A stretch of DNA of 64,000 bases from positions 4,672,001-4,736,000 of the forward strand of contig CAVUSO010000001.1 of NCBI GenBank assembly GCA_963744145.1, in the 5' to 3' direction. Under the pieces are notes generated by a model. That model made no database searches and was not told the origin of the DNA. It saw only the letters and a program-made list of their open reading frames with translations. Numbering within the stretch: the first letter of the stretch is position 1; every line of letters begins with the position of its first letter. This document shows, piece by piece, positions 4,205 to 53,514 of this stretch. Source of the DNA: an uncultured cyanobacterium. GTDB lineage: Bacteria; Cyanobacteriota; Cyanobacteriia; Cyanobacteriales; CAWUOF01. Made by a program: the position numbers and the translations under genes.

Positions 4205-4436
4205 CATAAATGTTCCTCTCGCTCCAAACTCAATCGGAATATCAACCGCGTGATGGAGCGAGTTTCTAATATTGATTAGAGTAATTAAGGATTATTTGCG
4301 ATCGCTTGATTCCAACTAAATATTGCTGAGAAATCGTCATAATTTAGTAGTCTTGACTGGCGATAGAATTCATTTTCTGATAAACTAATATATGAGCGGA
4401 AAACCTGAATCTGACTGTTATCATAGGAGAACCCAG

Positions 4437-5387
4437 ATGAGATTTATTAGTCCCAAAATTGATTATGCCTTTAAAAAAATCTTCGGTTCGAGCCAAAGTG
4501 AACAAATTTTAATTAGTTTTCTGAATGCGATTATGTATAATGGGGAGAAAATCATTGAATCCCTCAATATTGTCAATCCCTATAATCCGGGTCAAGTGGT
4601 CAGTTTAAAGGAGTCTTATTTAGATGTAAAAGCGGTCTTAACCGATGGTTCAATAATTCTGATCGAAATGCAAATAGCGCGAGTGAGTGCCTTCAGTAAA
4701 AGAGTAATTTACAATGTGGGAAAAGCTTATACAAATCAATTAGGAATCGGGGAATATTATCCGGGTTTAACACCAGTAATTGGAGTGACAATCACCGATT
4801 TTATGATGTTTCCTCAGACCCCAGAAGTCATCACTCAATTTGGGTTAGTGGAGCAGACCAAAAAATTTCCCTATCCCGACCAAGAATTACAGTTCATTTT
4901 TGTGGAATTACCAAAATTTCAGAAACAACTATCAGAATTAGCTAATGTGAGGGAACAATGGATATATTTTCTGAAAGAAGCCGCAAGATTAGAGACAATT
5001 CCCCAGGAATTAAGTCAGGTAAGTGAAATCGAACTAGCTTTAAATATAGCGAATCAAGCCAATATGACTGTAGAGGAATTAGAAATAGTAGATAGAAGAG
5101 GAATGTTGTTACAAGATGAAAAAGGACGTCTGACTTATGCTAGAGAAGAAGGTCGTACTGAAGGTCGCGCTGAAGGTCGTGCTGAAGGTCGCGCTGAAGG
5201 TCAAAGATTGGGTGAACAACAATTGTTACTTCGCCTATTGCACAAGCGTTTTGGTGAATTACCAACTTCTATAACTCAACCAATTGAAAACCTATCTATT
5301 CCCGATTTAATTAATTTAGGAGAAAATATTTTCGATTTCGATAGTCTCAGAGATTTGCAGCAATGGCTGGAACTTAGAGAAAACTAA
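4437..5387 (+). CDS. Rpn family nuclease, copy 5
   Basis: Same protein; ATG at 4437 after AGGAG; 4 EGxx units. Confidence 0.9.
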   Translation: MRFISPKIDYAFKKIFGSSQSEQILISFLNAIMYNGEKIIESLNIVNPYNPGQVVSLKESYLDVKAVLTDGSIILIEMQIARVSAFSKRVIYNVGKAYTNQLGIGEYYPGLTPVIGVTITDFMMFPQTPEVITQFGLVEQTKKFPYPDQELQFIFVELPKFQKQLSELANVREQWIYFLKEAARLETIPQELSQVSEIELALNIANQANMTVEELEIVDRRGMLLQDEKGRLTYAREEGRTEGRAEGRAEGRAEGQRLGEQQLLLRLLHKRFGELPTSITQPIENLSIPDLINLGENIFDFDSLRDLQQWLELREN

Positions 5388-6883: not shown

Positions 6884-7791
6884 TCATAAAAAAGTTTTTA
6901 TCTTTGGTCATATTAATATTTAGCTTGCTGATGGGTCTTAGTGCCTGTGCTAGTTCCCAAATTAGTTATTCTGGTGATATTACTATTGGCTCAAAAAACT
7001 TTACTGAAAATATAATTTTAGCAGAAATTTTAGCCAAATCGATCGAAACAAAAACCAATTTAAAAGTAACAAGAAAGTTTAATTTAGGTGGTACAGGTAT
7101 TTGTCATGAAGGAGTTAAATCTGGACAATTAGATGCTTATGTTGAATATACAGGTACAGCTTTTACAGCGATTTTAAAGCAAAAAAAACTCAATGATGCT
7201 CAAGCTGTTTATGACCAAGTTAAACAAGAATATATAAAACAGTTTAATCTAGTATTAACTGAACCTTTAGGATTTGAAGATACTTTTGCGATCATTATCC
7301 GGAAAAAAGATGCACAACGCTTACATATTCAAACTATATCAGAAGTAGCGAAATATATCTCCCAATGGCAAGGTGGTTTTGGTTATGAATTTACTGAACG
7401 AGAGGATGGATTACAGGGATTATCTGAAACTTATGGATTAGAATTTACTCGTTCTCCCCAGATCATGGAGTTAGGATTACTATATCGAGCGTTGGTAGAA
7501 AAAAAGGTAGATATCATAGCAGGAAATTCTACCGATGGACAAATAGCTACACTGGGGTTAGTGATTTTAAAGGATGATAAACAATATTTTCCTCCTTATC
7601 AAGCTGTCCCGATCGTGCGTCAGGAAACTTTGCAGAAATATCCCCAATTACGGGAAGTTTTTCAGCAATTGGGAGGGAAAATTACCGAATCAGAAATGCA
7701 ACGGATGAACTATAAAATCGATGGTGACTTCGATCAAGTTGAAGATGTCGCGGAGAATTTTTTAAGATCAAAAAAGTTGTTAAATAAATAA
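6880..7791 (+). CDS. Osmoprotectant ABC transporter substrate-binding lipoprotein
   Basis: Lipobox LSAC; GSKNFTE, EYTGT and DDKQYFPPY motifs (OpuAC family). Confidence 0.9.
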   Translation: MIIKKFLSLVILIFSLLMGLSACASSQISYSGDITIGSKNFTENIILAEILAKSIETKTNLKVTRKFNLGGTGICHEGVKSGQLDAYVEYTGTAFTAILKQKKLNDAQAVYDQVKQEYIKQFNLVLTEPLGFEDTFAIIIRKKDAQRLHIQTISEVAKYISQWQGGFGYEFTEREDGLQGLSETYGLEFTRSPQIMELGLLYRALVEKKVDIIAGNSTDGQIATLGLVILKDDKQYFPPYQAVPIVRQETLQKYPQLREVFQQLGGKITESEMQRMNYKIDGDFDQVEDVAENFLRSKKLLNK

Positions 7792-21405: not shown

Positions 21406-22035
21406 CTACAAAGTAAGGTTCAAAATCTGCTGTAGGGATAAATTGAACTGGGGAAAAGTTGGGGAAGCGATCGGCGTATTTCCTGTGAATGGAATCATCT
21501 GATATTCTCCGTCAATCAAACTACAAACAAAAAATGTGGGTTTTTTAGGATTACCGATAAATTTTCTTGCCCCTAAAGCTGCGTAATCGATTATCCAATA
21601 TTCCTCAATCCCCATTTCCTCATAATCTCGCAGTTTATTATAGTAATCATCACGCCAATTAGTTGAAACCACCTCAACGATTAATTTGACTGAATTACAA
21701 TTTTGGATAATTGATTCACTTTCCCACCGGGATTCCGCTCCAATAACTTCTTGATTTAAAACGATGATATCTGGTTCATAACCTGAGTTTTCCCTAGAAG
21801 GTTTGACAATTGCTTCCCTAGGAATAGTCCAAATACCTCCTTTACCGATCTGTCTAATCATGATCAATAATTGCTCAATCAGGGAACCAGTTAGATTTGA
21901 ATGTTTTCCCTTTGGTTTAGGCATTTCGATGATTACTCCATCATGCAGTTCGTATCGGATTTTCGAGTTTTCAGGATACCATCTGATAAATTGGTCAAAG
22001 TTATATAATTTGGGTTCAGATTGGGCTTGATTCAT
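21406..22035 (-). CDS. Uma2 family endonuclease
   Basis: YELHDG, EPD, VEVVSTNWRDDY, GIEEYWIID. Confidence 0.9.
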   Translation of the reverse strand: MNQAQSEPKLYNFDQFIRWYPENSKIRYELHDGVIIEMPKPKGKHSNLTGSLIEQLLIMIRQIGKGGIWTIPREAIVKPSRENSGYEPDIIVLNQEVIGAESRWESESIIQNCNSVKLIVEVVSTNWRDDYYNKLRDYEEMGIEEYWIIDYAALGARKFIGNPKKPTFFVCSLIDGEYQMIPFTGNTPIASPTFPQFNLSLQQILNLTL

Positions 22036-29837: not shown

Positions 29838-30263
29838 TCAAATCGGGATCGATTCCTTGCGATCGCAAATAAGCAGCCAATCGTTCTTTCTGTTGCTGTT
29901 GTGCCCATTACCACTGGCTAATTCGATCGCAATTAAGGGCACACTATATTCGCGCCAGATCACATAAGAACGGCGAATTTGACCGTCTAAGAGGGGTAGA
30001 ACGTTAGGGACATAGAACCAATCCGGTGCTTCTGCTCCCCGTTCGGTCGGATCAGTTTCCCGCCAGTATATCCCACTATCTTGTCCGATCGCATATTGAC
30101 CATCTGGATGGAGAGTTTGTAATGTAGTTTCCAGAGAGTCAGTCAGCAAGATACATTGGGGATGTTCTTGAAAGTTTTTCACGAAAGTGCCGTCGGATTC
30201 AGGTAATTGAGTATGATCTGGAAAAGGAGGGGGTAAGATGGTGGGGTCAAGACTTATGCCCAT
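29838..30263 (-). pseudogene. Uma2 family endonuclease, internally deleted
   Basis: Homologous to 39356..40123 up to IELASGNG, then jumps out of frame to the terminal KERLAAYLRSQGIDP DNA. Confidence 0.85.
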
Positions 30264-30391
30264 AGTTCTGAGCGATCCACAACAGGAATGACGAGATGCT
30301 TGATTTAAGTATAGCAATTTGAGATTGAGCAGTTTAATACTTACTACTAAAAAATCAATCCAAACAGCGAATATATAGAGGAGATCCACCA

Positions 30392-30709
30392 GTGAAAATT
30401 GAAATTGATGGTCAAGATGCGGTTAGCGCTGCTGAGGAATTGCTGAGAATTGAAGGGCTTGAAGGTAGTTATAAAATAGTTGATGAAGTGGAGCGAGAAG
30501 GAATATTAGCTACGATCGCTACAATCGTAGGGATTGCCAGTGGTACGGTGACAATTGCTAAAGAGATATATGAGTGGTATCAGAAATACCAGAAGTCTCA
30601 AGGGGCAAAGGCAAAAATTGAGAAAGTTTTAATTATTGGTTCTAATAATCGTCGTTTGTTGCTCAAGGATGCGACGGTAGAGCAGATTCAGAAGATTCTA
30701 GAAGATTAG
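30392..30709 (+). CDS. Small single-TM protein co-encoded with CHAT protease (EACC1-like candidate), copy 1
   Basis: GGAG RBS plus GTG start; hydrophobic ILATIATIVGIASGTVTIA segment; duplicated at 35233. Confidence 0.75.
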   Translation: MKIEIDGQDAVSAAEELLRIEGLEGSYKIVDEVEREGILATIATIVGIASGTVTIAKEIYEWYQKYQKSQGAKAKIEKVLIIGSNNRRLLLKDATVEQIQKILED

Positions 30710-30719
30710 GACAGAAACC

Positions 30720-33700
30720 ATGAAAATCCTCCACATTAGTTTAACTGAACTGGGTAAGGATTATGCTGCTTTGCGTTACTTTTGGGAGAATCCTCCTGAT
30801 TACAAGGAACACAGATTACCTCTGGCTGAAATTAAAGATTTAGGCAATCAATCAGAAGCTGATTACTATACTCGTATTCCTGTGGATTATGCTACTACCG
30901 GACAATCACTCTATAACTGGTTAGATCAGAGTGATCGCTTGTTAGCTAATGCTTTAAATCAGCCTCGTCAGGACGGGTTAGTAATTGCGATCGCGACGGA
31001 TAAAGGACTAGCAAAGTTGCCTTGGGAATTGTTGCATGATGGGAATTGTTTCTTAGTAGAGAAAAGACCTGCAATTATTCCGGTGCGGTGGGTGTCTAAT
31101 GGTCAACCGATCGCGATCGCTAACTCTCCACAAAATCGACCTCTTAATCTGTTATTTATGGCGACTTCGCCTTTAGGAGTTGAACCAGAATTAGAGTATG
31201 AAGCGGAAGAAGGGCAAATTTTAAAGACAACCCATACTCCAGTAAACTTGATAGTAGAAGAAAGTGGCTGTTTAACTGAATTGGGTCGTCTGGTTCGAGA
31301 ATATGAAAAAGGATATTTTGATATTTTTCATTTAACAGGTCATGCAACTACTGATGGGGGAAAACCCTGCTTTTTGACTGAAGACGAATACGGCAACCGA
31401 GTTGATAGCAGTACCGCCAAAATATACGATGAGCTGACATCTCCCTTACCGTCTTTAATTTTCCTCTCTGGTTGTCGAACTGGTTATTCTTCTGAGGGGA
31501 CAGTTCTCTTAATGGCCGAAGAATTATTAAAGATGGGAGGAACAGCAATTTTAGGATGGGGGGAAAGAGTCCGCGATACCCATGCAACAGCGGCTGCGAG
31601 TAAATTGTATTGTCATTTGGCTCAAGGGGACGCGATTACAGATGCACTATCTTTTACCTACAAAACCTTGATTAATGACCAGGTACAAGAGTGGCATAAA
31701 TTACGGTTATATGTGGCAAATACCTTACCCCAGGCGTTAGTAACTCCTTTAAGAACAAAGGGACGCAAACAATTGCCCAAACCGACGACAACAATCGAAT
31801 TTAGGGATGATGAACAACGGTTAAGGGTGGCAAAGAGAGAAGATTTTGTTGGTCATCGCCGCCAGTTACAGAACTGTTTGCGAACTCTGAAGCGAGATCA
31901 GGAAAAAGTAGGGGTATTAATTCATGGGATGGGGGGATTAGGAAAAAGTAGTATTGCCTCGCGATTGTGGGATAGACTACCTGAACATGAAAAAGTTTTC
32001 TGGTGGCGACAAATTGATGACTCCAACTTGATAAAAAAGCTATCATCCAAATTAATAAAAACCGAGTTACGGGCTATTCGTAATGATTTAAACACTAGCG
32101 ATGACAGTTTAGAAATAAAACTCGCTAATTTATTCAATCAATTGGCAGAACTGGGCGAAAACCCGTTTCTCTTGATTCTTGATGATTTTGAATGGAATCT
32201 CGAACCCCGTCAAGGTCGATTTATTCTCAAGCCTGAAGTTGCGACAGTTTTGTCAGCATTAGTCTGGGCAATCCAAGAGACGGGAACTGGGCATCGGATT
32301 TTGATTACCTGTCGCTATGAGTTTAATTCTGAGTTATTGGAATTTTTCTTCTCACAAGGTCTAGAATCTTTTAAAAAAGCTGAATTAACTAAAAAGCTGA
32401 ATCGCCTAGAACATTTTAGTTCTGGTAAGCTCTCTGAATATCTACGCGATCGGGCGCTAAGTTTAGCCGATGGCAATCCTCGTTTACTGGAATATCTCAA
32501 TGATGAAGTTTTAGGTAAACCAGATGCAGCAGCTAAATTAATCGAGCTAGAACAAAGTCCTGAACTGTGGAAAGACAAAATTATTTGGGAGGAACTGTAT
32601 AAGGTTATTGATGAGCCATTACAACGGGTTATTAGCCATTGCCTAATCTACCAAATTCCTGTACCGATGATAGCTTTAGAAGGAGTTTGTGGCTCTCCCG
32701 TAATAGCGTTGGAAAATCCCGTTTTTCGGCAGGGGAGAGCACGGAGCAGGGTAGAAGCTTATCACATAAGCTTATGGAACTTAAATAATTTTTACTTATC
32801 ACCGCAAGTACGGGACAACCGAGTTTGTGACGCTCTTCCTAATTACCAACAACAGTTACAACGGGGTCAAAAACTGGGGCTTATTGAAATTAGTCCTGAA
32901 ATTCAAGAAGAAAATCAAGTCTATTATGTCTCTCGAATTTTACCTCATATAATTCCCAATATTCGACTTTCTGAAGCACCAGAAGTTTATTCGTTGTACA
33001 AGAATGCTCATGAAATATTACATGAGTTATGGGGAAAAATTTACAATGAAAGTAAAGAAAAGTGGCAGGAGATTTTTCGGTTATTGTTTGCGGATAAAGA
33101 AAATCCAGAGCGATTCAGACAGGGATTCTTTAAAATGTTGGCAGTTCAATGCCATTTAGAAGCAGATGAAGCCTTAGAATCAGAAATGAGGAAACTAAAA
33201 GATGAGTTGTCAACGGAGAATTTTTGCGGTCAACTAGAGAACTATTTAAGTCAAAAAGAATGGAGAAAAGCTGATGAGGAAACTGCTTGGATCTTTTATC
33301 AAATGATGGTGCAGAAAGGCTACAAAAATTGGGATGAGTTATGTAAAAACTTTCCCAATGAAATCCTCAACCAGATTGACCAGCTTTGGGTTGATAACAG
33401 TAAAGGACGCTTTGGATTCAGTATTCAAAAACAAATTTGGGAAAGTGTTAATTCAGAAACACGTAAATCGGAAAAATTTGGAAACCTAATAGGTTGGAAT
33501 AAAATAGTAACAGAAAAATGCAATTGGATGTACTACAACACTTTGCTATTCTCGACTGAAGCTGCCACTGGAAGCCTTCCAGCCCTTTGTTATATGAAGG
33601 GAGAATTCATCAAGACAAATGGTGGAGTTTGGGTTGGTGGTTGGATGTTTTATTGTGTAGTTGGGTTTGGGTGGTTATGTGAGTGTGGGTGGGTTGGATT

Positions 33701-33737
33701 TCTTCTCTCACGCAAAGATATAAGTTATAAAATATAG
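30720..33737 (+). CDS. CHAT (caspase-like protease) - STAND/NB-ARC-type NTPase - GUN4 domain protein, copy 1
   Basis: LPWELL, FHLTGHA (His), LSGCRT (Cys), Walker A GMGGLGKS, Walker B LILDDFE, GUN4 WRKADEET...IDQLW...GRFGFSIQKQIW. Confidence 0.9.
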   Translation: MKILHISLTELGKDYAALRYFWENPPDYKEHRLPLAEIKDLGNQSEADYYTRIPVDYATTGQSLYNWLDQSDRLLANALNQPRQDGLVIAIATDKGLAKLPWELLHDGNCFLVEKRPAIIPVRWVSNGQPIAIANSPQNRPLNLLFMATSPLGVEPELEYEAEEGQILKTTHTPVNLIVEESGCLTELGRLVREYEKGYFDIFHLTGHATTDGGKPCFLTEDEYGNRVDSSTAKIYDELTSPLPSLIFLSGCRTGYSSEGTVLLMAEELLKMGGTAILGWGERVRDTHATAAASKLYCHLAQGDAITDALSFTYKTLINDQVQEWHKLRLYVANTLPQALVTPLRTKGRKQLPKPTTTIEFRDDEQRLRVAKREDFVGHRRQLQNCLRTLKRDQEKVGVLIHGMGGLGKSSIASRLWDRLPEHEKVFWWRQIDDSNLIKKLSSKLIKTELRAIRNDLNTSDDSLEIKLANLFNQLAELGENPFLLILDDFEWNLEPRQGRFILKPEVATVLSALVWAIQETGTGHRILITCRYEFNSELLEFFFSQGLESFKKAELTKKLNRLEHFSSGKLSEYLRDRALSLADGNPRLLEYLNDEVLGKPDAAAKLIELEQSPELWKDKIIWEELYKVIDEPLQRVISHCLIYQIPVPMIALEGVCGSPVIALENPVFRQGRARSRVEAYHISLWNLNNFYLSPQVRDNRVCDALPNYQQQLQRGQKLGLIEISPEIQEENQVYYVSRILPHIIPNIRLSEAPEVYSLYKNAHEILHELWGKIYNESKEKWQEIFRLLFADKENPERFRQGFFKMLAVQCHLEADEALESEMRKLKDELSTENFCGQLENYLSQKEWRKADEETAWIFYQMMVQKGYKNWDELCKNFPNEILNQIDQLWVDNSKGRFGFSIQKQIWESVNSETRKSEKFGNLIGWNKIVTEKCNWMYYNTLLFSTEAATGSLPALCYMKGEFIKTNGGVWVGGWMFYCVVGFGWLCECGWVGFLLSRKDISYKI
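32691..32820. mobile_element. 130-bp ISL3-like MITE inserted in frame in the CHAT-NTPase-GUN4 gene
   Basis: 8-bp TSD GAGTTTGT (32683-32690 and 32821-32828); imperfect TIRs GGCTCTCCCGTA / TACGGGACAACC; absent from the paralog. Confidence 0.9.
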
Positions 33738-33821
33738 GCTTTTCAGGTATTTTGTCAAGCTAATTTTTTAGTTATTTTTTTACGAAAACATAAATAAGTA
33801 GGCGACTGAACAGCCACCTGG

Positions 33822-33897
33822 CATAGCAATTAGCCATCACAAATTTTTCAGCCACCTGGAGAATTTCTGAATTAGTCGATTTCCGTTCGTCCCAAGA
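33822..33897 (-). pseudogene. 3' fragment of Y1/HUH transposase-like gene
   Basis: High nucleotide similarity to about 38659-38735 (TNSEI.QVAEKFVMANCY). Confidence 0.75.
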
Positions 33898-34079
33898 TAT
33901 TAGTAACAAGTTAAGGTGATGGGTAAATTAGTTGCGATCGCACAATAGTATTAAATTTAATTCCTAACTGACAAATAGAAAGCGCGATCGCATTTTGTGG
34001 GAGAGCTGAGGTGCGATCGCGACTCAAAAAAATATTAATCAGGTATTTATTCTGTTAAAATTTTGAGATTGTTTTGAAT

Positions 34080-34502
34080 TTATAACTGAGTAGGAATAAT
34101 TAAATCTATAATCTGATTTTTATTCTGACGATAAACTAGAAAATCACGATCTAATGTTAATACACAACTGCCAGCAATTAACTCGGTCATTCTCACTAAA
34201 CAAGCATCGGCTAAAGACATTGGTACATTCTGATAACGTTGCAGCAGTTGTCTAATCGTTTCGCTGTCATCATTCAGTTGAAAAGGAATTTGAATAATTT
34301 TTCTACTGATTAAATTTATCACTGCGTCCTGACCTTTATAGACATCTTGCAACAGAAAACAAGTTTCTGTTATTACCCCTTCGCAAGTCAATAAATGTGG
34401 TTCAATTATTTTCCATTGTTCAATTGCCCAGGAATGTAGATTTTCTTTTTTATTAATAAATGCAACTAATACTCCTGTATCTAGTAACACTTTTTTTCTC
34501 AT
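34080..34502 (-). CDS. VapC-type PIN domain toxin
   Basis: VLLDTGVLVA, VITET, MSLADACLV, TLDRDF. Confidence 0.9.
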   Translation of the reverse strand: MRKKVLLDTGVLVAFINKKENLHSWAIEQWKIIEPHLLTCEGVITETCFLLQDVYKGQDAVINLISRKIIQIPFQLNDDSETIRQLLQRYQNVPMSLADACLVRMTELIAGSCVLTLDRDFLVYRQNKNQIIDLIIPTQL

Positions 34503-34753
34503 TTTTTACCCATTCCTTTTAGATATTCTTTATTCGTCCCTAAATCACCAGGGCCAAAATCAACAGATCCAGCAAATTCTTGGGCTGCTTCATAAGCAGA
34601 GATGGGTTGTTTTTCCTTAACTTGCTGTTTCTCCTGCTTTTGGGTTTTATATCGCAAAAACTCAATAAATTCCAAAACAGTATCCTGCTGTTCTATTGTT
34701 AGCATTTCAAGATAATCTAAAATTACATCTTTTTTATTGATCCCCATACTCAT
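34499..34753 (-). CDS. Putative antitoxin (DUF2281-like)
   Basis: QDTVLEFIEFL, AGSVDFGPGDL; overlaps the PIN gene start. Confidence 0.8.
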   Translation of the reverse strand: MSMGINKKDVILDYLEMLTIEQQDTVLEFIEFLRYKTQKQEKQQVKEKQPISAYEAAQEFAGSVDFGPGDLGTNKEYLKGMGKK

Positions 34754-34770
34754 AGTTATATTCTCCTAAA

Positions 34771-35094
34771 TTAAATTAAATCGGGATCGATTCCTTGCGA
34801 TCGCAAATAAGCAGCCAATCGTTCTTTCTGTTGTTGTTCTCGATCAGCTCGTACCGTTTCAGCATCAGTCCGTTCGGTCGGATCAGTTTCACGCCAGTAT
34901 ATCCCACTATCTTGTCCGATCGCATATTGACCATCTGGATGAAGATTTTGGAGTGTAGTTGACCGGGAGTCAGTCAGCAAGATACATTGGGCATGTTCTT
35001 GAAAATTTTTCACGAAGGTGCCGTCAGATTCAGGTAATTGAGTATGATTGGGAAAAGGAGGGGGTAAGATGGTGGGGTCAAGACTTTGGACCAT
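34771..35094 (-). pseudogene. Uma2 family endonuclease, large in-frame internal deletion
   Basis: N-terminus up to YWRETDPTER fused directly to the terminal coiled coil. Confidence 0.85.
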
Positions 35095-35232
35095 AGTTCT
35101 GAGCGATCCACAACAGGAATGACGAGATGCTTGATTTAAGTATAGCAATTTGAGATTGAGCAGTTTGTTCAGGTTTAATACTTACTACTAAAAAATTAAT
35201 CCAAACAGCGAATATATAGAGGAGATCCACCA

Positions 35233-35553
35233 GTGAAAATTGAAATTGATGGTCAAGATGCGGTTAGCGCTGCTGAGGAATTGCTGAGAATTGAAGGGCT
35301 TGAAGGTAGTTGTAAAATAGTTGATAAAGTGGAGCGAGAAGGAATATTATTAGCTACGATCGCTACAATCGTAGGGATTACCAGTGGTGCTGTGACCATT
35401 GCTAAAGAAATATATGAGTGGTATCAGAAATACCAGAAATCTCAAGGGGCAAAGGCAAAAATTGAGAAAGTGCTAATTATTGGGTCTAATAATCGTCGTT
35501 TGTTGCTCAAGGATGCGACGGTAGAGCAGATTCAGAAGATTCTAGAAGATTAG
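35233..35553 (+). CDS. Small single-TM protein co-encoded with CHAT protease, copy 2
   Basis: Near-identical to 30392..30709. Confidence 0.75.
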   Translation: MKIEIDGQDAVSAAEELLRIEGLEGSCKIVDKVEREGILLATIATIVGITSGAVTIAKEIYEWYQKYQKSQGAKAKIEKVLIIGSNNRRLLLKDATVEQIQKILED

Positions 35554-35562
35554 GCAGGAACC

Positions 35563-38427
35563 ATGAAAATCCTCCATATTAGTTTAACTGAACAGGGTAA
35601 GGATTATGCTAGTTTGCGTTACTTTTGGAATCATCCTGCTGATTACAAAGAACACAGATTGTCTCTGGCTGAAATTAAAGATTTAGGCAATCAAGCAGAG
35701 ACTGATTACTATACTCGTATTCCTGTGGATTATGCGATTACTGGACAAGCACTCTACAACTGGTTAGATCAGAGCGATCGCGTGTTAGCCAATGCCTTAA
35801 ATCAGCCCCGTCAGGAAGGATTAGTAATTGCGATCGCGACGGATAAAGGAATGGCAAAGTTGCCTTGGGAATTATTGCATGATGGGAAGTGTTTCTTAGT
35901 AGAGAAAAGACCTGCTATTATTCCGGTGCGGTGGGTGCCTAATGGTCAACCGACGATCACGATCGCTAATTCTCCGCAAAATCGACATCTTAATCTGTTA
36001 TTTATGGCCACTTCTCCTTTAGGAGTTGAACCTGAATTAGATTATGAAGCAGAGGAAGGGAAAATTTTAAAGGCGACCCAGCGTACTCCAGTGAATTTGA
36101 GAGTAGAAGAAAGTGGCTCTTTAAGTGAATTGAGTTATCTGGTGCGGAAACAGGAAAAAGACCCAAACCATCCTGATGTTAGCTATTTTGATGTTTTTCA
36201 TTTAACAGGTCATGCAACTTATCAGGAGGGAAAACCCTGCTTTTTGACTGAAGACGAATATGGCAACCGAGTTGATAGTATTACCACAGAAATACGCGAT
36301 GCGCTGACATCTCCCTTACCGCCTTTAATTTTCCTCTCTGGTTGTCGAACTGGTTATTATTCTGAGGAAACAGTTCCCTCAATGGCAGAAGAATTATTAA
36401 AGATGGGAGGAACAGCAATTTTAGGATGGGGGGAAAGAGTCCGTGATACTGATGCAACAGCAGCTGCGTGTAAATTATATTGGCATTTGTCTCAGGGGGA
36501 AGCGGTTACAGATGCTCTATTTTCTACCTATCAAGCCTTGATTCGACAACAAGCACACGATTGGCATAAATTACGGTTATATGTGGCAAATACCTTACCC
36601 CAGATGTTAGTAACTCCTGTAAACACAAGAGGACGAACACAATTGCCTAAACCGAAATTTAGGGATAGTGATCAGCAGTTAAAAGTGGCAAGGGGTGAAG
36701 ATTTTGTTGGTCGTCGCCGTCAGCTCCAGAACTGTTTGCGAATACTAAAGATAGATAATGACAAAGTAGGAGTATTAATTCATGGCATGGGGGGATTGGG
36801 AAAAAGTAGCATTGCCATTCGACTGTCGGATCGGCTATATGAACATGAAAAAGTTCTGTGGCGACAACAAATTGATGCCTCAAGCTTGATAAAAGAGCTA
36901 TCTGATAAATTAATTAAACCAACGTTACGCGATATTCGTGATGATTTAAACAGCAATGACAGATTATATTTTAAGATAGCTAATCTATTCAATCAATTAG
37001 CAGAACTGGGTGAGAAACCGTTTCTCTTGATTCTTGATGAATTTGAATTGAATCTAGAACCCCGTCAAGATCGATACATTCTCAAACCTGAAGTTGCTAC
37101 AGTTTTAGAAGCATTAGTTAGGGCAATCCAAGATACGGGAACTCAAAATCGAATTATTATTACCTGTCGCTATAAGTTTGATTTTAATTTATTGAATTCT
37201 TTTTTCTCTCAAGGTCTAGAAGCTTTTCAAAAAGCTGAATTAACTAAAAAACTGAACCGCTTAGAACATTTTAGTTCTGATCAGCTCTCTCAAGAGCTAC
37301 GCGATCAATCGCTAAGTTTAGCCGATGGCAATCCTCGTTTACTGGAATATCTCAATGATGAAGTTTTAGGTAAACCAGATGCAGCAGCTAAATTAACGGA
37401 ACTAGAACAAAGTCCTGAACAGTGGAAAAACAAAATTATTTGGCCAGACTTGTATAAGCTTATTGATGAGCCTTTACAACAGGTTCTTAGTCATTGCTTA
37501 ATCTATGAAATTCCTGTACCAATGGAAGCTTTAGAAGTAGTTTGTGCTGCTCTTCCTAATTACCAACAGCAATTACATCGAGGGCGTGAACTGGGATTCA
37601 TTGAAATCAGTCCTGACGTTCAAGCAGAAAATCAAGTCTTTCGTTTCTCTCGAATTTTACCTCATATTATTCCTAATATCCGACTTCCTGAAGCACCTGA
37701 AGTTTATTCTTTGTACAAGAAAGCTTATGAAAAGTTACATCAGTTGTGGGGAAACAAACAAAATGAAAGTCCGGAAAAGTGGCAGGAAATTTTTCGGTTA
37801 TTGTTTGCCGATCAAGAAAATCCAGAACGATTCAGACAGGGATTCTATGAGATGTTGGCAGTTCAATATAATTCAGAAGCAGATCAAGCCTTAGAATCAG
37901 ACCTGAGACAACTGAAAAATGAATTATCAACAGATAATCTTTGCCGTCAATTAGAGGATTATTTAAGGCAACAAGAATGGAGAAAAGCTGACGAGGAAAC
38001 TGCCTGGATTTTTTATCAAGTGATGGTGCAGCAAGACTATGAAGATTGGTCCGAGCTATGCAGAAACTTTCCCTGCGAAACCCTCAAGCAGATAGATCAG
38101 CTTTGGGTTGATAACAGTCAAGGACGTTTTGGATTCAGCATTCAAAAGCAAATCTGGGAAAGTGTGGGCGGACATCCTGATGCAAAATATGAAATATATG
38201 AAAAATTTTGTGATAAAGTAGAATGGAGAAAAGAGGGCGAATGGTTGCTTTATAGTAACCTTACTTTTAATAATAACACTACTCCAGAGGGCTACCTCCC
38301 AGTCCTACCGCTCGCTCGCTTTCGCGAGTTTGGGGGTTGGTTGGGATTTATGGGGATGGGATACAAGGGGGATTGGAGATTTGTGAGGGTTGTTGTTGGG
38401 GTGGGTCTCTTCTCTCGCGCAAAGTAA
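35563..38427 (+). CDS. CHAT - STAND NTPase - GUN4 domain protein, copy 2
   Basis: Same motifs as copy 1 (FHLTGHA, LSGCRT, GMGGLGKS, LILDEFE, GUN4 core); divergent C-terminal tip. Confidence 0.9.
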   Translation: MKILHISLTEQGKDYASLRYFWNHPADYKEHRLSLAEIKDLGNQAETDYYTRIPVDYAITGQALYNWLDQSDRVLANALNQPRQEGLVIAIATDKGMAKLPWELLHDGKCFLVEKRPAIIPVRWVPNGQPTITIANSPQNRHLNLLFMATSPLGVEPELDYEAEEGKILKATQRTPVNLRVEESGSLSELSYLVRKQEKDPNHPDVSYFDVFHLTGHATYQEGKPCFLTEDEYGNRVDSITTEIRDALTSPLPPLIFLSGCRTGYYSEETVPSMAEELLKMGGTAILGWGERVRDTDATAAACKLYWHLSQGEAVTDALFSTYQALIRQQAHDWHKLRLYVANTLPQMLVTPVNTRGRTQLPKPKFRDSDQQLKVARGEDFVGRRRQLQNCLRILKIDNDKVGVLIHGMGGLGKSSIAIRLSDRLYEHEKVLWRQQIDASSLIKELSDKLIKPTLRDIRDDLNSNDRLYFKIANLFNQLAELGEKPFLLILDEFELNLEPRQDRYILKPEVATVLEALVRAIQDTGTQNRIIITCRYKFDFNLLNSFFSQGLEAFQKAELTKKLNRLEHFSSDQLSQELRDQSLSLADGNPRLLEYLNDEVLGKPDAAAKLTELEQSPEQWKNKIIWPDLYKLIDEPLQQVLSHCLIYEIPVPMEALEVVCAALPNYQQQLHRGRELGFIEISPDVQAENQVFRFSRILPHIIPNIRLPEAPEVYSLYKKAYEKLHQLWGNKQNESPEKWQEIFRLLFADQENPERFRQGFYEMLAVQYNSEADQALESDLRQLKNELSTDNLCRQLEDYLRQQEWRKADEETAWIFYQVMVQQDYEDWSELCRNFPCETLKQIDQLWVDNSQGRFGFSIQKQIWESVGGHPDAKYEIYEKFCDKVEWRKEGEWLLYSNLTFNNNTTPEGYLPVLPLARFREFGGWLGFMGMGYKGDWRFVRVVVGVGLFSRAK

Positions 38428-38620
38428 TCTGTAAGATATAACAATTTCAGGCCATTTGTCAAGCTTAATTTTGGTACTAATTTTTACGAAAACATCGGCT
38501 TTCCGCCAATTCGATACCTGGCACTGTTCCGTCTGTCCGTTTTGGCTGTCTGTCTGTTGTTGGAATATATATTTTAGACAGAATAAAGACAGAATGGCCA
38601 GGTGACCAGAACAACACAAA

Positions 38621-38956
38621 CTAAGAATCATTGAAAAACTGTGCAGCGACCTTGGGGTCATAGCAATTAGCCATCACAAACTTTTCAGCTACCTGGCGAA
38701 TTTCTGAATTAGTCGGTTCCCATTCATCCCAAGGCAATTTCATCTGTCCAGGAATACGTCTTTTCGTTTCCTTTGCACTCAAAACCTTGGGCAGTAATTT
38801 ACTTCCCCAGTGACAACGGTTTTCCGGTTTGGGTTGAGGTTTATATTTCTTACAGAACTTGCGATATTTCTCGGCACATTCATCCAAACTTTTCCCCAGA
38901 GCCAAAAAAGCAGGATGCCACTGAGTTAGTCCATCATCGCTCAATCGGTCATATAC
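38621..38956 (-). pseudogene. C-terminal half of a cyanobacterial IS200-like/RAYT-like Y1 (HUH) transposase, 5' part lost at a MITE end
   Basis: VYDRLSDDGLTQWHPAFLALG.SLDECAEKYR.FCKKYKP...HWGSKLL matches, from memory, the C-terminus of a cyanobacterial Y1_Tnp family. The HUH motif itself is not present. Confidence 0.65.
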
Positions 38957-39309
38957 AGCAGATTCGGTCGTTGATGAAGTACAGTAAGATTTGGCATGAA
39001 TGGCGATCGGTTAAAGTCGCTTGTGAGTGATCTGTGTTGGTTGGGCAGGTTTATGATAGTTATCTGTTTGCAGCAGAATTGATTGGTGAACCTGCCCCTA
39101 CAAATCCCGGTTGATTGTGATCATAAATTCATTCACCTGCCCCTACAAATCCTGTTAATCTTGTAATCCTCTAATCCTGATCGATTTTTTGGTGAATCTC
39201 TGTAGGGATGGGTCTACTGAAATTTTTGCTATTTACCCACTAATCATCACGCACCCACCCCCACCCACAGATCAATCTGCTCAATGTATCTTCATAGTCA
39301 ATTGGTATA
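38954..39309. mobile_element. Chimeric MITE: TACAGCA-family left end joined to TACCAATT-family right end
   Basis: Left end TACAGCAGATTC...TGATGAAGTAC matches the reverse complement of 48545-48572. Right end AATGTATCTTCATAGTCAATTGGTAT matches the reverse complement of 27466-27491. Confidence 0.75.
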
Positions 39310-39355: not shown

Positions 39356-40123
39356 ATGACTTCTGTGATCAAAACGACATCAAGGTTAAGACCAGATTTA
39401 CCCGACCATACTGAATTACCTGACTCCGACGATAACTTCGTGAAAAATTTTCAGGAACATCCTCAAAGTATTCTCCTCACCGATTCGATTCAACCAGTAT
39501 TAGACCGTTTACATCCAGATGGACAATATTGTATCGGACAGGACAGTGGTATTTATTGGCGATTAACTGAACCACCTCTAGATGGAGCTGAAGCACCGGA
39601 TTGGTTTTATGTCCCCGATGTCCCCCGGACACTGAATGGACAACTACGACGATCTTATGTGATCTGGCAAGAATTAACTCCCCCAGCGATCGCGATCGAA
39701 TTTGTCTCCGGAAATGGGAAAGAAGAAAGAGATCCTACTCCCTTAAAGGGAAAATTTTGGGTCTATGAACAAGGAATTAAAATCCCCTATTATGCGATCT
39801 ATGAAGTCCAGAAAGCGAGGGTGGAAGTCTATCAACTCCAAGACGATCGCTATGTCAAATTAAGTCCAAATTTCCAGGGACGTTATCCGATTCACTTGAT
39901 GGGAGTAGAATTAGGAATCTGGTCCGGAAGATATCAAACCATGCAACTACCCTGGTTAAGATGGTGGGATGAGCAAGGAAACTTGTTATTAACGGGAAGT
40001 GAAAGAGCCGAAATCGAGCAACGGGAAAAACAACTAGCCCAACAACAACTTGAACAGGAACGACAACGAGTTGAACGTTTAGCGGCTCAATTACGCAGTT
40101 TAGGGATTGAACCGGAATTATAG
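39356..40123 (+). CDS. Uma2 family endonuclease (intact)
   Basis: LPDSD..FVKNFQEHPQS, APDWFYVP, IEFVSG, KFWVYEQ, WLRWWD. Confidence 0.9.
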   Translation: MTSVIKTTSRLRPDLPDHTELPDSDDNFVKNFQEHPQSILLTDSIQPVLDRLHPDGQYCIGQDSGIYWRLTEPPLDGAEAPDWFYVPDVPRTLNGQLRRSYVIWQELTPPAIAIEFVSGNGKEERDPTPLKGKFWVYEQGIKIPYYAIYEVQKARVEVYQLQDDRYVKLSPNFQGRYPIHLMGVELGIWSGRYQTMQLPWLRWWDEQGNLLLTGSERAEIEQREKQLAQQQLEQERQRVERLAAQLRSLGIEPEL

Positions 40124-49241: not shown

Positions 49242-52200
49242 TCAAGTCTCCTCTAACCAAGTTTGAATCGCAGATAATAAATTGGCTTGATGAGGTGGAA
49301 AGCCTTTTAACGGTGCTTCTAGGGGTTCATTGGTTAGCCAGGCGATCGCCAGGGTATCAGTGAGTTGGTAACAAAAGTCGATCACTTCTGGGGTGGGATG
49401 TTCGCAATGGGTAAGCAGGAGGTTGAGTTTTGGTAAGTTGAAGGTTAATTTGCATTGATCAATGCTATAACATAGGTCAGCGGGGGTGGCAACTCTGGGA
49501 TACATTTGCTCAGGAAATGCTTGTTTCCAGATGCGTCTGCACAGGATTTGGGCAATTTCGCCTTCTCTGGTTTCCGTTGCTAGAATGTCGGCATTGATAC
49601 AAACAATTGGCAGATTTTGCAATTTGATGGAAAGTTCTATCTGTTGATTGTCTAGATTATCAACAGTTGAATTATTTCCCACTGGAATCTGTTCGGTAGT
49701 TTCTGGATGGTAGATAGTGGTGGGATGATGCCATGCTTGATAAAATTGGGGATAGGGAAGTTTCATAGCACAGTCCCAAACAACTTTGTAGCATTGATCA
49801 AATCTGTCAAAGTTACTTTTGTAAACTTCATTACTGAGACAGTCTTTTAAAGCTGAGACAACCCCTGCATATTGTTCAGGTGTGGTTAATATTTTCTCCA
49901 AACTGGATACTACTTGCGAACGAGTAGATTCATCCTCAGTGGTGGCCAGAAGTTTGACTAAAGTGTCGATCAGACCACGGGTATTTTTACTGTCAGTAGT
50001 TGACAGATGTTTGACTAAAGCGGTGAATACTTTCGGATGATGTTTGACTAAAATGGTGAGCGCTTCAAGATTTCGAGCAATTTTCTCAAAAATCTTTGCC
50101 GCTAAACGACGGGTATTTTCACTGTCAGTGATTGACAGATATTTGACTAAAGTAGTGAGCGCTTCCGGACGTTTGACTAAAAAAGCAGTGAGCGCTTCCG
50201 GATTTCGAGCAATTTTCTCAAAAATCTCTATCATTTTCCCCAAAATCTCTGCCGCTTGCCGACGGGTCAATTCATTTTCATTGGTTTTCAGAAGTTTAAC
50301 TAAAGCGGTGAGCGATTCCGGATTTCCTGGAACAATTTTATCCAAACTACCTGCCGCTTTCAAACGGGTTAATACATTTTCACTGGTTTTTAGAATTTCG
50401 ACTAAAGCCGCGATCGCTTCCAGATTTCCTGGAGCAATTTTCCCCAAACTATCTGCCGCTTGCCAACGGATATCTTCATCGTCAGTGGTTGCCAGAATTC
50501 TGACTAAAGCGGTGATCACTGCCTGATTTCCTGGATCAATTTCCTCCAATATTTTTGCCGTTTGCCAACGGGTAAATTCATTGTCAGTAGTTGCCAGAAT
50601 TCTCACTAAAGTGGAGATCGCTTCCAGATTTCCCGGAGCAATTTTCCCCAAACTATCTGCCGCTTGTAAACGGATCAATTCATTTTCACTGTTTTTCAGA
50701 AGTTCGACTAAAGCCGCGATCGCTTCCGGATTTCCTGGCGCAATTTTCTCCAAACTATCTGCCGCTTGCTGACGGGTAGATTTATTGTTAGTGGTTGCCA
50801 GAATTCTGACTAAAGCAGCGATCGCTTCCAGATTTCCTGGAGCAATTTTCCCCAAACTATCTGCCGCTTGCCAACGGATATCTTCATCGTCACTGTTTTT
50901 CAGAAGTTCGACTAAAGCAGTGATCACATCCAGATTTCCTGGAGCAATTTTCCCTAAACTAGATGCTGCTATCTGACAAATAACTTTATTTTCATTGGTT
51001 TTCAGAAGTTCGACTAAAGCAGCGATCACCTTCAGATTTTCTGGAGCAATTTTCCCCAAAATATCTGCCGCTAGACCACAGGTAATAAATTCATTTTTAT
51101 TGGTTTTCAGAAGTTTGACTAAAGCGGTGATCGCTTCCGGATTTCCTGGAGCAATTTGCTTCAAACTATATGCCGCTTGCAAACGACAACGAATAAATGA
51201 TGTATCATTATTGGTTGCCAGAATTCTGACTAAAGCGGCGATCGCTTCCAGATTGCCTAGAGCGATTTCAGCCAAATGCTCTACCGCCTCACTAAAATTA
51301 TCTGGGCAATGTTCGAGGATTTCACTAAGTTTTGTAATAAGTTCTGTAATGGCTAGTTGTCGAATCGTTTCTGGTATTATCTCTCTTGCCTCTGCTTCAA
51401 TTCGATAAAAATAAGTTCTCCATTCCCTTTTCTCAATATTAAAATCACCAAATGCCCATTTAATTACCTGTTTAACAATTTGTGAAGCCAGGGAACAATT
51501 TTTAAATTCATTAATTGCTGCTGCTGCTATAAAATAGGGTTGATATTCATAAAAATCTCTGCATCCATCATCAAAATTTACTAACGCCTGAATCAACCTC
51601 TCCTTTTCCTTATTTTCAATATTCTCACGCCCCACCCACAACAAAATGACATGCTTCCATTGCGGCTGAAAAATCCGATATTCTTTCCCATCAATCGGAA
51701 AATCATCATGATCTTTAGGTAAAAAATAATCCCAATCATCCACTGCCAATGCTGCAAAATACTCCTGAAATGTGGCATGATAAAAGGCATACACTGGCTC
51801 CCTAAGATTTTCGGCTGCTACCCCCACCTCATTTAACCAACCCAACCTTAATGCCTGATCTAAGAGCGAATTCTCATTCCGGTTACCCAAATATTGACAA
51901 ATAAACTGATGGGTTAACCGAAACCTTGTTCCCTCTCCATCTAGGGACGCTTTTGCTAACTTTCCTAAACCTGCATTCAAACTATCTATTTCCGTTTTTG
52001 TCATAGGAAACTCTTTTTTCTTCCAATCATACATATAGTCCACAAAACTCTGATACAGCTCGGCAGTTGTATCGGGTAAACTTCCCTCTTGCCAAATCGA
52101 TGATAATAAGGTTAACCGGAGGGGATTGCGGCATAAATCCTTAATCCGTTCTTTCCCTGGGGTTTGCAGTGCTTCCCACAAAGATTCACCTAACTTCATT

Positions 52201-53363
52201 TCTGGTTTTTCCCCAGACAAACTCCGAAACCACCTTTGGTTAAACTGCTGCATTTGTTCATCCTGAAATGGTTGAGTCAGATAGGTTTGAAAACCCTGTA
52301 ACTGGGATGGGTTACCTTGCCACAGATTCAATCGACAGGAGATGATTAATTGAGATTGTGTCACCCAACCTTGCAACGATAAAGCATCTCTAGCTGTATC
52401 GTTCATTTCATCCAATCCATCCAAGAGTAACCAGACTCTACCCTCCTTAAATTTTTGCTCCCAGTCTGCCTTAATTTCTTCGGTGGGATTTATAAAAGCA
52501 TCTTCCAGCCAAATTTCTTGTAAATAGTCCCCCAAGCGTTTATTACCCAAATTTCCGAGGGATATCCAAATCACTAAATCATCGGTTTCTTCTAATAACC
52601 AAAATGCTAATTTCTGTAATAAAGTAGTTTTTCCGGCTCCGGGTTCCCCACTAATAACAAGATTTTTTTGTTTCCCTTGGCTAAGTACTTCCTGGAGAAA
52701 CTCACCGTAGGTAAACCGTTTTTCCACTTCCTGTCGATCATAAAATTCCGAACCGCGCTCTGGAGCGATATCTTGTTTGTGTGCTTCATGGTGATGGGGC
52801 TTCAGTTTAACCAGTGCTAAATCAATAAATAATTCTTCTTCAACTAAATTCCGATTAAACTGGGCTTTTAATAAACTATTACTGCTTAACTGTTTATGAC
52901 TTTCCAACATCCGTAGACAAACATCTTGCCACTCCTCAAGTTTTAGTTGGCGATTTTCTCCTATGTTGATATCAATTGATGGCAAATTTATTTCGTTTTC
53001 AGATTGCCATTGCGGATATTTTTCGTTCCAAAGCCAATTAAAAATATCTCGCCAGGCTTCTTGTCCTTTCGGTGGTCTTGCTTTCTTTCTTTTTTGGCTT
53101 CCTGGGTTTATTGTTTGCGAAGAAATCGGACAATCTTGATTGTCATAAAATTTTTGACAAATGGTCTCTACGTGGTATGTAATACTTTGTTGTATATGCA
53201 ATACTTTTTTTTCTTCTTCAACAATACTTTTTAGGAGAGTCATATTTTCCTTATGTTCATTCTCTTTATCGAACCTTAGCAGAAACATTTTTTCTTTTTT
53301 TTCTGTAATGCCATATTGTCTAGCAATTGTTTTGAGAAAAACCTGCTCTCGTGACTGTTTCAT
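49242..53363 (-). CDS. NACHT NTPase with HEAT (PBS-lyase-like) repeats, NLR-like
   Basis: Walker A GEPGAGKTT, LLLDGLDE, NPLRL, FYHATFQEYFAA; many ~33-aa repeats IRWQAADSLGKIAPGNLEAIAALV. Confidence 0.92.
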   Translation of the reverse strand: MKQSREQVFLKTIARQYGITEKKEKMFLLRFDKENEHKENMTLLKSIVEEEKKVLHIQQSITYHVETICQKFYDNQDCPISSQTINPGSQKRKKARPPKGQEAWRDIFNWLWNEKYPQWQSENEINLPSIDINIGENRQLKLEEWQDVCLRMLESHKQLSSNSLLKAQFNRNLVEEELFIDLALVKLKPHHHEAHKQDIAPERGSEFYDRQEVEKRFTYGEFLQEVLSQGKQKNLVISGEPGAGKTTLLQKLAFWLLEETDDLVIWISLGNLGNKRLGDYLQEIWLEDAFINPTEEIKADWEQKFKEGRVWLLLDGLDEMNDTARDALSLQGWVTQSQLIISCRLNLWQGNPSQLQGFQTYLTQPFQDEQMQQFNQRWFRSLSGEKPEMKLGESLWEALQTPGKERIKDLCRNPLRLTLLSSIWQEGSLPDTTAELYQSFVDYMYDWKKKEFPMTKTEIDSLNAGLGKLAKASLDGEGTRFRLTHQFICQYLGNRNENSLLDQALRLGWLNEVGVAAENLREPVYAFYHATFQEYFAALAVDDWDYFLPKDHDDFPIDGKEYRIFQPQWKHVILLWVGRENIENKEKERLIQALVNFDDGCRDFYEYQPYFIAAAAINEFKNCSLASQIVKQVIKWAFGDFNIEKREWRTYFYRIEAEAREIIPETIRQLAITELITKLSEILEHCPDNFSEAVEHLAEIALGNLEAIAALVRILATNNDTSFIRCRLQAAYSLKQIAPGNPEAITALVKLLKTNKNEFITCGLAADILGKIAPENLKVIAALVELLKTNENKVICQIAASSLGKIAPGNLDVITALVELLKNSDDEDIRWQAADSLGKIAPGNLEAIAALVRILATTNNKSTRQQAADSLEKIAPGNPEAIAALVELLKNSENELIRLQAADSLGKIAPGNLEAISTLVRILATTDNEFTRWQTAKILEEIDPGNQAVITALVRILATTDDEDIRWQAADSLGKIAPGNLEAIAALVEILKTSENVLTRLKAAGSLDKIVPGNPESLTALVKLLKTNENELTRRQAAEILGKMIEIFEKIARNPEALTAFLVKRPEALTTLVKYLSITDSENTRRLAAKIFEKIARNLEALTILVKHHPKVFTALVKHLSTTDSKNTRGLIDTLVKLLATTEDESTRSQVVSSLEKILTTPEQYAGVVSALKDCLSNEVYKSNFDRFDQCYKVVWDCAMKLPYPQFYQAWHHPTTIYHPETTEQIPVGNNSTVDNLDNQQIELSIKLQNLPIVCINADILATETREGEIAQILCRRIWKQAFPEQMYPRVATPADLCYSIDQCKLTFNLPKLNLLLTHCEHPTPEVIDFCYQLTDTLAIAWLTNEPLEAPLKGFPPHQANLLSAIQTWLEET

Positions 53364-53514
53364 ATTCCCTTCACTGCTTTTTACCTTAGCACTGATTGTA
53401 ATTAAAGTGGAAGAAAATGTCAAGAGGAATCCATAAAAATCATTAAATAGAAAATTTCTATTTAATTTCTATTTAATTTCTATTATTTGCCTAATTTACT
53501 CTCTATTTAAGTTT

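Follow-up and report, generated by a model that had tools for sequence, protein, structure and literature searches.

The window analyzed here, 64,000 nucleotides (nt) of an uncultured cyanobacterium (contig CAVUSO010000001.1, positions 4,672,001 to 4,736,000, assembly GCA_963744145.1), contains two tandem genes for CHAT-STAND NTPase-GUN4 proteins. Many cyanobacterial genes for GUN4 paralogs carry one type of module on their 3′ side, and the variable C-terminal tips of the two window proteins are copies of it. In this module, a coding tract of variable length is followed by a conserved DNA element and a convergent Y1 (HUH) transposase gene or its remnant. Few means of concentrating variation in a single part of a protein are known from bacteria. 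The reading that the compared sequences favor, with a probability of about one half, is nuclease-linked diversifying recombination as proposed for the procA genes that face tnpA_REP.

The tips of two tandem GUN4 paralogs are unalignable and depleted in C

Copy 1 (positions 30720 to 33737 of the window, plus strand, 1005 residues) matches Pfam CHAT at residues 60 to 322, AAA_16/NB-ARC at 380 to 493 and GUN4 at 837 to 962. Copy 2 (35563 to 38427, plus strand, 954 residues) matches CHAT, AAA_16 and, at residues 795 to 916, GUN4. With scores of 88.9 and 104.5 bits against a gathering cutoff of 29.2, both C-terminal domains belong to the GUN4 family (PF05419). The two proteins are 70% identical (700/998), and their alignment holds through the GUN4 core but is lost past G(S/Y)LP, as an initial annotation of this DNA had claimed.

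The G-S-L-P codons of copy 1 (33570 to 33581) are the last conserved position of its GUN4 domain, where the alignment with relatives also stops, and they form the 5′ border of a plus-strand tract of 118 nt (33582 to 33699; A21 C6 G46 T45; length modulo 3 = 1). In copy 2, the G-Y-L-P codons (38290 to 38301) precede a plus-strand tract of 105 nt (38302 to 38406; A13 C12 G46 T34; length modulo 3 = 0), which carries a canonical G-quadruplex motif at 38332 to 38360. The depletion in C noted initially was borne out. Positions 33617 to 33701 hold no C in 85 nt (G38 T37 A10), the longest C-free run of the window, and positions 38326 to 38406 hold a single one in 81 nt (G41 T27 A12 C1). Stretches of 80 nt with at most two C occur in the window only at 33609 to 33706 and 38324 to 38408, and 0.0003 such runs per 64 kb would be expected from base frequency. 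Given the peptide and the codon usage of both genes, a C-free run of 28 codons in copy 1 has a probability of 0.0046; the bias thus exceeds what the choice of amino acids imposes.

A search with the tail region returned 19 further proteins of 552 to 1759 residues. All of them become unalignable past G(H/N/S)LP, continue with a G/W/V-rich stretch of differing length and finish with one of a few short end motifs. We then aligned twelve GUN4 domains and searched genome contigs with the resulting profile, which yielded 79 loci (from the best 80 of 183 confirmed stretches). In 25 of their genes, the tract between the P codon and the anchor sequence described below measures 35 to 166 nt. Over 31 sites, the 45 nt located 5′ of the anchor average G 0.40, T 0.32, A 0.175 and C 0.11, compared with roughly A 0.33 and C 0.15 in the GUN4 coding DNA upstream of the tracts. 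One tract of locus L073 consists of G and T only (43 nt: G29, T14), and G runs of up to 9 are present in tracts. Others, among them those of L007, L024 and the second gene of L016, are not G/T-rich. The G/T-skewed, C-depleted segment anticipated for other GUN4 genes is therefore a strong tendency but no rule. A codon built from only G and T is never a stop, and the residues it can specify are limited to G, V, W, C, L and F.

A conserved DNA element behind the tract is read in three frames

Both tracts of the window run into the anchor, TCTTCTCTC(A/G)CGCAAAG, which occurs exactly twice in the window, at 33701 to 33717 and 38408 to 38424. No further match was found in the window at up to three mismatches; 0.24 matches were expected, and two were reached in 2 of 100 shuffles. 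The anchor starts a conserved DNA element (delimited by alignment of element copies), which lies on the plus strand at 33699 to 33825 in copy 1 (nhmmer E = 3e-14) and at 38406 to 38528 in copy 2 (E = 8e-24). In copy 1, translation in frame b (LLSRKDISYKI) takes in the anchor and extends over the first 39 nt of the element, up to the stop codon at 33735 to 33737. In copy 2, the anchor is translated in frame c (LFSRAK) and the stop codon follows directly, at 38425 to 38427. Conserved noncoding DNA continues 3′ of both stops and includes, in copy 2, the strongly conserved motif GATACCTGGCAC. The claim that the shared anchor is read as L-L-S-R-K in one gene and L-F-S-R-A-K in the other was correct, and the comparison supports conservation that acts at the DNA level, independently of the frame.

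A profile made from 21 copies of the element was run with nhmmer on the 79 GUN4 loci and the window. Of the 79 loci, 25 contained the element, in 29 copies altogether, and the window contained two more; each copy was on the same strand as its GUN4 gene, and 10 of the copies found were absent from the seed. Every copy stands 3′ of a GUN4 tail, including one at 9345 of L026 behind a decayed GUN4 gene and one at 11234 of L073 behind a second intact gene, the tract of which is almost pure G and T. The element spans about 130 nt, has a mean column identity of 65% over 22 copies from several orders and terminates in GATACCTGGCAC. The variant present in the window is common to Xenococcus-type loci.

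About 40 nt at the start of the element are translated, in a frame set by the tract. The C termini of the 79 loci sort into three classes, SSLASRLVNCNI, LLSRRDL and FFSRVETCKL. One and the same stretch of DNA, starting TCTTCTCTCGCG, is read in frames a, b and c in genes of Dolichospermum (two in L016), Aphanizomenon (L018) and Cuspidothrix (two in L019), and in these three loci each frame has its own stop, the stops being 7 nt apart. The three common C-terminal motifs of GUN4 proteins are thus a single DNA sequence, a point that matters for annotation. It is unusual in itself for one block of DNA to supply, whatever the frame, both a usable C terminus and a stop. The three frames are used equally. 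Tract length modulo 3 is 0, 1 and 2 in 9, 8 and 8 of 25 genes, and with six further sites framed by eye from their peptides, about 10 of 31 are in frame a, 11 in b and 10 in c. When 141 database proteins were sorted by C-terminal patterns, 36 ended in frame a, 23 in b and 40 in c; the 42 unclassified ones are mostly variants.

As the 79 loci had been picked through GUN4, we searched plasmids with the element DNA alone (142 nt from L011). Seven records matched, all from Nostoc, at nine places. In six of the seven, the best place falls where an annotated gene stops, and each of these genes encodes a protein with GUN4 at its C terminus (Pfam, E = 1e-20 to 1e-45) and a CHAT-STAND or AAA_35 part at its N terminus. 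In the seventh, it lies behind an unannotated GUN4 remnant beside an ISL3 insertion. Two of these seven places use frame a, two frame b and three frame c. The element variant of the window itself had no plasmid match. The anchor is hence kept in other GUN4 genes, in 25 of 79 loci and on seven Nostoc plasmids, and the element is tied to GUN4 tails.

In L016, L018 and L019, the element of three genes is interrupted near position 62 by one kind of short repeat (TCAGAATCAGGAT...), which is probably a miniature mobile element. In the proteins P0110 to P0112, P0004, P0011 and P0130, translation continues from the anchor peptide into a second GUN4 domain, or part of the anchor peptide is present in duplicate, which suggests that GUN4 domain, tail and anchor duplicate as a unit.

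A Y1 transposase gene faces the element

In both copies of the window, the conserved noncoding DNA is followed by a convergent Y1 transposase remnant, as described initially. Behind copy 1, about 75 nt of the C-terminal coding end remain (33822 to 33896, minus strand), identified by DNA alignment with copy 2. Behind copy 2 stands the C-terminal half of a RAYT-like Y1 (HUH) transposase gene (38624 to 39010, minus strand), the catalytic N-terminal half of which is missing. This remnant had no Pfam match of its own; by tblastn, it is 58% identical over 105 residues (window 38648 to 38959) to the intact 264-residue product of L073. A gap in the alignment of the two copies marks 38529 to 38620, between element and remnant, as present in copy 2 only. 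That DNA holds an imperfect inverted repeat (38546 to 38560 and 38578 to 38592), and similar DNA occurs in L001 at about 7540 to 7600.

Across loci, the Y1_Tnp gene is directly downstream of the element and convergent with the GUN4 gene. It is intact in L009, L065 and L073 (264 to 271 residues, stop to stop) and in L080 and L084 (256 residues), with Pfam Y1_Tnp E values of 1e-15 to 1e-20, and elsewhere it is partial or down to its C-terminal half. Plasmids pNFSY08 of Nostoc flagelliforme and pNe_2 of Nostoc edaphicum carry intact genes of the 256-residue type. All 11 tblastn matches to Y1 in about 1 Mb of locus DNA adjoin an element; co-occurrence with Y1 transposases, which the initial annotation had named merely as a check, is thus a consistent feature. 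In some lineages the last Y1 codons extend into the element. Elsewhere, as in the window, GATACCTGGCAC is located past the stop of the transposase gene, yet it is conserved.

All 25 sequences compared have the NHVH and YIHANP motifs unchanged, and together with the long C-terminal tail these motifs fit the subclass 2.1 signature tabulated by Quentin et al. (PMC6006769). The best NCBIfam match is REP_Tyr_transpos (REP-associated tyrosine transposase, RAYT), at 67.6 to 73.7 bits against a cutoff of 80. The family comprises 851 clusters, with 67 to 100% identity across orders among the 120 listed; the organism names shown for listed clusters are cyanobacterial in all but one row, in which the UniRef text is truncated. 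A protein atlas search returned cyanobacterial Y1_Tnp clusters only and no link to picocyanobacteria. PDB sequence searches with the Y1 protein and with a 25-sequence profile found nothing at E values up to 0.01.

These data bear on the possibility that the element and Y1 form an ordinary IS200-type insertion sequence with a history of many insertions at different points of GUN4 3′ ends; frames would then be random, and the tract would be a leftover of the native tail. The adjoining transposase and the stops in three frames, all of which are used, would fit such a history. We nevertheless consider it very unlikely. No conserved DNA was found past the Y1 start codon in five loci, which argues against a two-ended insertion sequence. 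All 31 copies of the element and the seven plasmid copies are at GUN4 tails and none elsewhere, and the 5′ border is fixed at G-H-L-P while tract length varies. The composition of the tract (rich in G and T, poor in C) is unlike that of GUN4 coding DNA, and the transposases are nearer to the REP-associated family than to IS200, which scores 22 to 27 bits. Thus, the Y1 protein has the HUH and Tyr motifs of IS200/IS605 elements, but the two ends with subterminal hairpins and the identical copies at unrelated sites that characterize such elements were not found.

Tails turn over fast where the element is present

In the Dolichospermum-Aphanizomenon-Cuspidothrix group (five genes, three species), the DNA is about 95% identical up to G-H-L-P, unalignable for 40 to 60 nt and then nearly identical. 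Syntenic orthologs of two Nostoc (L067 and L077) are more than 90% identical, drop to about 35% for 45 nt and return to about 97%. At the protein level, among 893 pairs with 80 to 95% flank identity, tract identity is below 0.4 in 883, between 0.4 and 0.6 in 4 and above 0.8 in 6. At flank identities of at least 99%, the tract is the same in 16 of 16 pairs. P0144 and P0146 have the same residue at 424 of 428 positions of their bodies, but their tails, which are 51 and 32 residues long and read in different frames, are unrelated, and four Planktothrix agardhii proteins with 94 to 97% identical bodies carry four unrelated tails. The tract borders are sharp to within a few bases. Together, the comparisons support the view that the tract turns over fast within sharp borders.

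GUN4 paralogs without the element provided a built-in control. Of the pairs of loci that share at least 75% flank identity, the 12 that bear the element all have a tail identity of 0 to 0.09, and the 37 that lack it all have one of 0.58 to 1.0. Tails therefore turn over fast only where the element is present, and the tail is not free to vary by nature. A second case that is independent of procA and comes with such a control makes the idea of a transposase-linked diversification much stronger.

The control also weighs on a passive explanation, in which the tail is an unconstrained low-complexity linker that drifts by slippage in G/T runs, the flanks are held by purifying selection and gene conversion, and the transposase is a bystander. 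Changes of the slippage type are indeed seen, namely, a 6-nt duplication (P0091 versus P0142) and a frameshift (P0146 versus P0213) by which class b becomes class a, and the long G runs, the stability of tails within populations and the causality that was likewise left unresolved for procA are all in keeping with drift. However, element-free paralogs keep their tails, tract similarity is all or none, nearly identical bodies bear unrelated tails of different length, and the borders are sharp. On balance, we regard passive decay as unlikely. Other small changes are duplications of part of the anchor or part of the G-H-L-P codons.

The same tail can be found on different bodies. P0144 shares its tail with P0109 and P0118 and differs from P0129 by one residue, and the tail of P0143 resembles those of P0092 and P0093; both cases are evidence for exchange. 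Homologous recombination among paralogs and strains, with GUN4 DNA and the element as arms and without a dedicated nuclease, might then suffice, new tails arising by ordinary mutation. Besides these shared tails, the flanks of the five genes in three species, which are about 95 to 100% identical, are in its favor. Nevertheless, it leaves unexplained why noncoding DNA is conserved across orders, why the Y1 gene is a constant neighbor and where unrelated G/T-rich tracts come from, as no template-like copy was found in any locus. Recombination by itself thus appears quite unlikely to account for the module.

A diversity-generating retroelement (DGR) elsewhere in the genome could in principle rewrite the tract. 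According to PMC7517822, DGRs are common in filamentous cyanobacteria and act on the C-terminal domains of multidomain signaling proteins; in that paper, GUN4 is listed among the N-terminal domains. The module shares with DGRs a focused variation of a C-terminal ligand-binding tip beside a conserved DNA site at the 3′ border. Unlike in DGRs, tract length ranges from 35 to 166 nt, all three frames occur, and positions other than adenines change as well. In agreement with the initial annotation, no reverse transcriptase family was detected among the 40 other open reading frames (ORFs) of at least 130 residues in the window. No template-like repeat was found in the window or the 79 loci either, where the best matches were of 13 to 18 nt with E values of 0.006 to 1. 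These observations together argue that the module is not a DGR, an origin to which we give almost no weight.

Turnover occurs between strains, paralogs and species and not within populations, and on the sequences compared it is episodic. A phase-variable contingency locus does not describe it, because the readable listed members of four clusters at 90% identity share one tail per cluster. The proposal of a targeted, possibly non-DGR rewriting hence stands as regards its departure from DGRs and the sharply bounded, fast turnover; the ongoing variation within populations that it implied was not seen in these four clusters.

The tract takes the place of a bilin-binding motif

Alignment to solved GUN4 structures places the variable tract directly past G-H-L-P, at the position of the LxNxLR motif. 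True GUN4 proteins have LxNxLR at this position and need it for bilin binding, and paralogs lack it (PMC10156173). The window proteins are therefore GUN4 paralogs rather than orthologs of the Mg-chelatase cofactor GUN4. In an AlphaFold2 model computed from a 12-row alignment, blocks of the GUN4 core have mean confidence scores (pLDDT) of 74 to 91, and residues 128 to 161, which make up the tract of copy 1, are below 50.

The GUN4 tails are borne by kinase, caspase, CHAT-STAND and AAA_35 proteins. The C-terminal sensor domains of such proteins are thought to act in conflict systems of multicellular bacteria, and the module thus bears on how conflict-system sensors diversify. GUN4 domains on kinases, caspases and TIR proteins have been read as tetrapyrrole sensors in conflict systems (PMC7159879).

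Relation to known systems

The closest parallel is procA (Laurenceau et al., bioRxiv 10.1101/2020.03.09.984088). The procA genes combine a conserved leader with an indel-rich core and face tnpA_REP at a fixed distance, with conserved intergenic DNA. Truncated transposase C termini are frequent at these loci and a G-quadruplex is present in a subset, and the authors proposed diversifying recombination. The GUN4 module has the same features: a conserved 5′ gene part, a hypervariable, indel-rich 3′ coding end, a TnpA_REP-type Y1 gene that faces it at a conserved distance, conserved intergenic DNA, truncated transposase C termini and a G-quadruplex motif in a subset of genes. It differs in its target, the GUN4 domain of kinase, caspase, CHAT-STAND and AAA_35 proteins, and in its hosts, which are filamentous and other nonmarine cyanobacteria, whereas procA is found in marine picocyanobacteria. 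In contrast to procA, the conserved block itself is translated, in three frames with three staggered stops, and the tract is G/T biased. The closest cyanobacterial relatives of TnpA_REP do not lie beside lanthipeptide genes (bioRxiv 10.1101/2020.03.09.984088), and the GUN4 module appears to be where at least some of them sit, as judged from a comparison of the transposases by motifs only.

A link between RAYT-type transposases and the variable end of a gene has been put forward in just one earlier case, that of prochlorosin, where it was left unresolved. The GUN4 module is an independent second case, in another gene family and in other cyanobacteria, and no description of it was found in the searched literature on GUN4, RAYT and prochlorosin. 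The idea can be tested in tractable strains, since Nostoc punctiforme PCC 73102 carries the module on two plasmids.

With RAYT/TnpA_REP and their REP/REPIN sequences (Bertels and Rainey; Quentin et al. 2018, PMC6006769), the GUN4-linked genes share the Y1 HUH type, the NHVH and YIHANP motifs, the long C-terminal tail, the lack of a two-ended transposon structure and high conservation. Unlike there, no GTAG-tagged palindromes were found here; the repeat is the element of about 130 nt, fixed 3′ of one gene family, and the GUN4-linked Y1 proteins score below the NCBIfam family cutoff.

In V(D)J junctional diversity, a G-rich junction of variable length forms between two conserved segments of an immune-type receptor. 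By analogy only, the GUN4 tract is likewise a G-rich junction of variable length between conserved DNA in an immune-type receptor. Recombinase signal sequences, a template-independent polymerase and a somatic timescale belong to V(D)J, whereas in the GUN4 module every frame gives a finished protein.

A possible mechanism and the evidence that weighs on it

Nuclease-linked diversifying recombination could operate as follows. An HUH nuclease, encoded in cis or by another genomic copy, would bind the element as single-stranded DNA and nick at or near the anchor. Repair would then replace the tract, either by copying the tail of another GUN4 gene with the conserved flanks as homology arms or by an error-prone, indel-rich fill-in. 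Only stop-free tracts would survive, which would favor richness in G and T, and the anchor would provide a usable protein end in any frame. Such replacement events would be rare. At the protein level, the LxNxLR ligand-binding motif would have been replaced by a variable hydrophobic tip. A targeted, transposase-linked process appears to be what the comparative patterns support best.

Several observations weigh against this reading. Nuclease activity, nick site and recognition hairpin are all conjectural. Both copies of the window retain only a dead transposase stub, so any activity here would be in trans or in the past. RNAalifold gave no consensus pairs on 22 element copies, and two hand-picked hairpins had 57% and 65% of cells paired with weak controls. 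Off-frame stops are merely halved in the tracts (0.046 versus 0.084 per codon), and both off-frames are open in only 5 of 25, for which reason we rejected the notion that all three frames are always open. A canonical G-quadruplex motif is present in only 5 of 31 tracts and was rejected as a defining feature. As regards turnover, 10 of the 12 element-bearing pairs come from five genes of one clade, so that the pairs are not independent and the independent sample is small. All listed readable members of the four 90% clusters (15, 15, 15 and 11 proteins) have one tail each, with one single-residue difference among them. The contrast between flanks and tract could be exaggerated by concerted evolution of the flanks. 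Lastly, the authors of the procA study later found no strong evidence for or against causality (bioRxiv 10.1101/2020.03.09.984088).

Other searches for structure in the element region gave little. An Rfam scan of 33500 to 39100 at E values up to 1 matched no family, the DNA fold of 38490 to 38625 was unremarkable (z-score of -0.5), and an inverted-repeat scan of five loci returned merely short, nonconserved pairs.

A more far-reaching version of nuclease-linked recombination is speculative, and we think it unlikely to be right in full. The RAYT-like nuclease and its element of about 130 nt might be a dedicated generator of new, untemplated junctions, whatever their length, at the tip with which bacterial immune-type sensors bind their ligands. 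The G/T-only code, with its lack of stops and its hydrophobic residues, and the three-frame anchor would then have evolved so that every product is a finished protein. If true, bacteria would have a counterpart to junctional diversity, and this tamed class of Y1 proteins would gain its first assigned function.

Surroundings of the two genes

Each CHAT-GUN4 gene of the window is preceded by a small plus-strand ORF, of 105 residues for copy 1 (30392 to 30709) and 106 residues for copy 2 (35233 to 35553). The two small ORFs are 95% identical, whereas the large genes are 70% identical. The small ORF is also 67% identical to the gene located 5′ of a CHAT-GUN4 gene on plasmid pNPUN01 of N. punctiforme. 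Pfam and NCBIfam gave no match for it, and it has no family assignment; it is probably a conserved partner of the CHAT-GUN4 gene. Copy 1 has an in-frame insertion of 46 residues that is absent from copy 2 (window 32691 to 32829, about residues 658 to 703).

Between the two GUN4 modules, at 34080 to 34753, a minus-strand gene for a PIN-domain protein (140 residues) and an overlapping small ORF upstream of it (84 residues) look like a VapBC-type toxin-antitoxin pair. Three genes for putative endonucleases of the Uma2 family surround the locus (21406 to 22035, 29838 to 30389 and 39356 to 40123).

At 3 to 5387, the window holds five tandem transposase-like PDDEXK_2 (+DUF4351) paralogs, the first of which is cut by the window edge. 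They vary in the number of EGRA repeats in their C-terminal part. The C-free runs of 43 nt at 389, 1569, 2728 and 5069 belong to a purine-rich coding repeat of these paralogs and are unrelated to the GUN4 tracts. Finally, a NACHT-HEAT repeat protein of 1393 residues is encoded on the minus strand at 49242 to 53423; the 5′ part of its gene contains a 55-nt run devoid of A (53055 to 53109), with a G-poor stretch just upstream.

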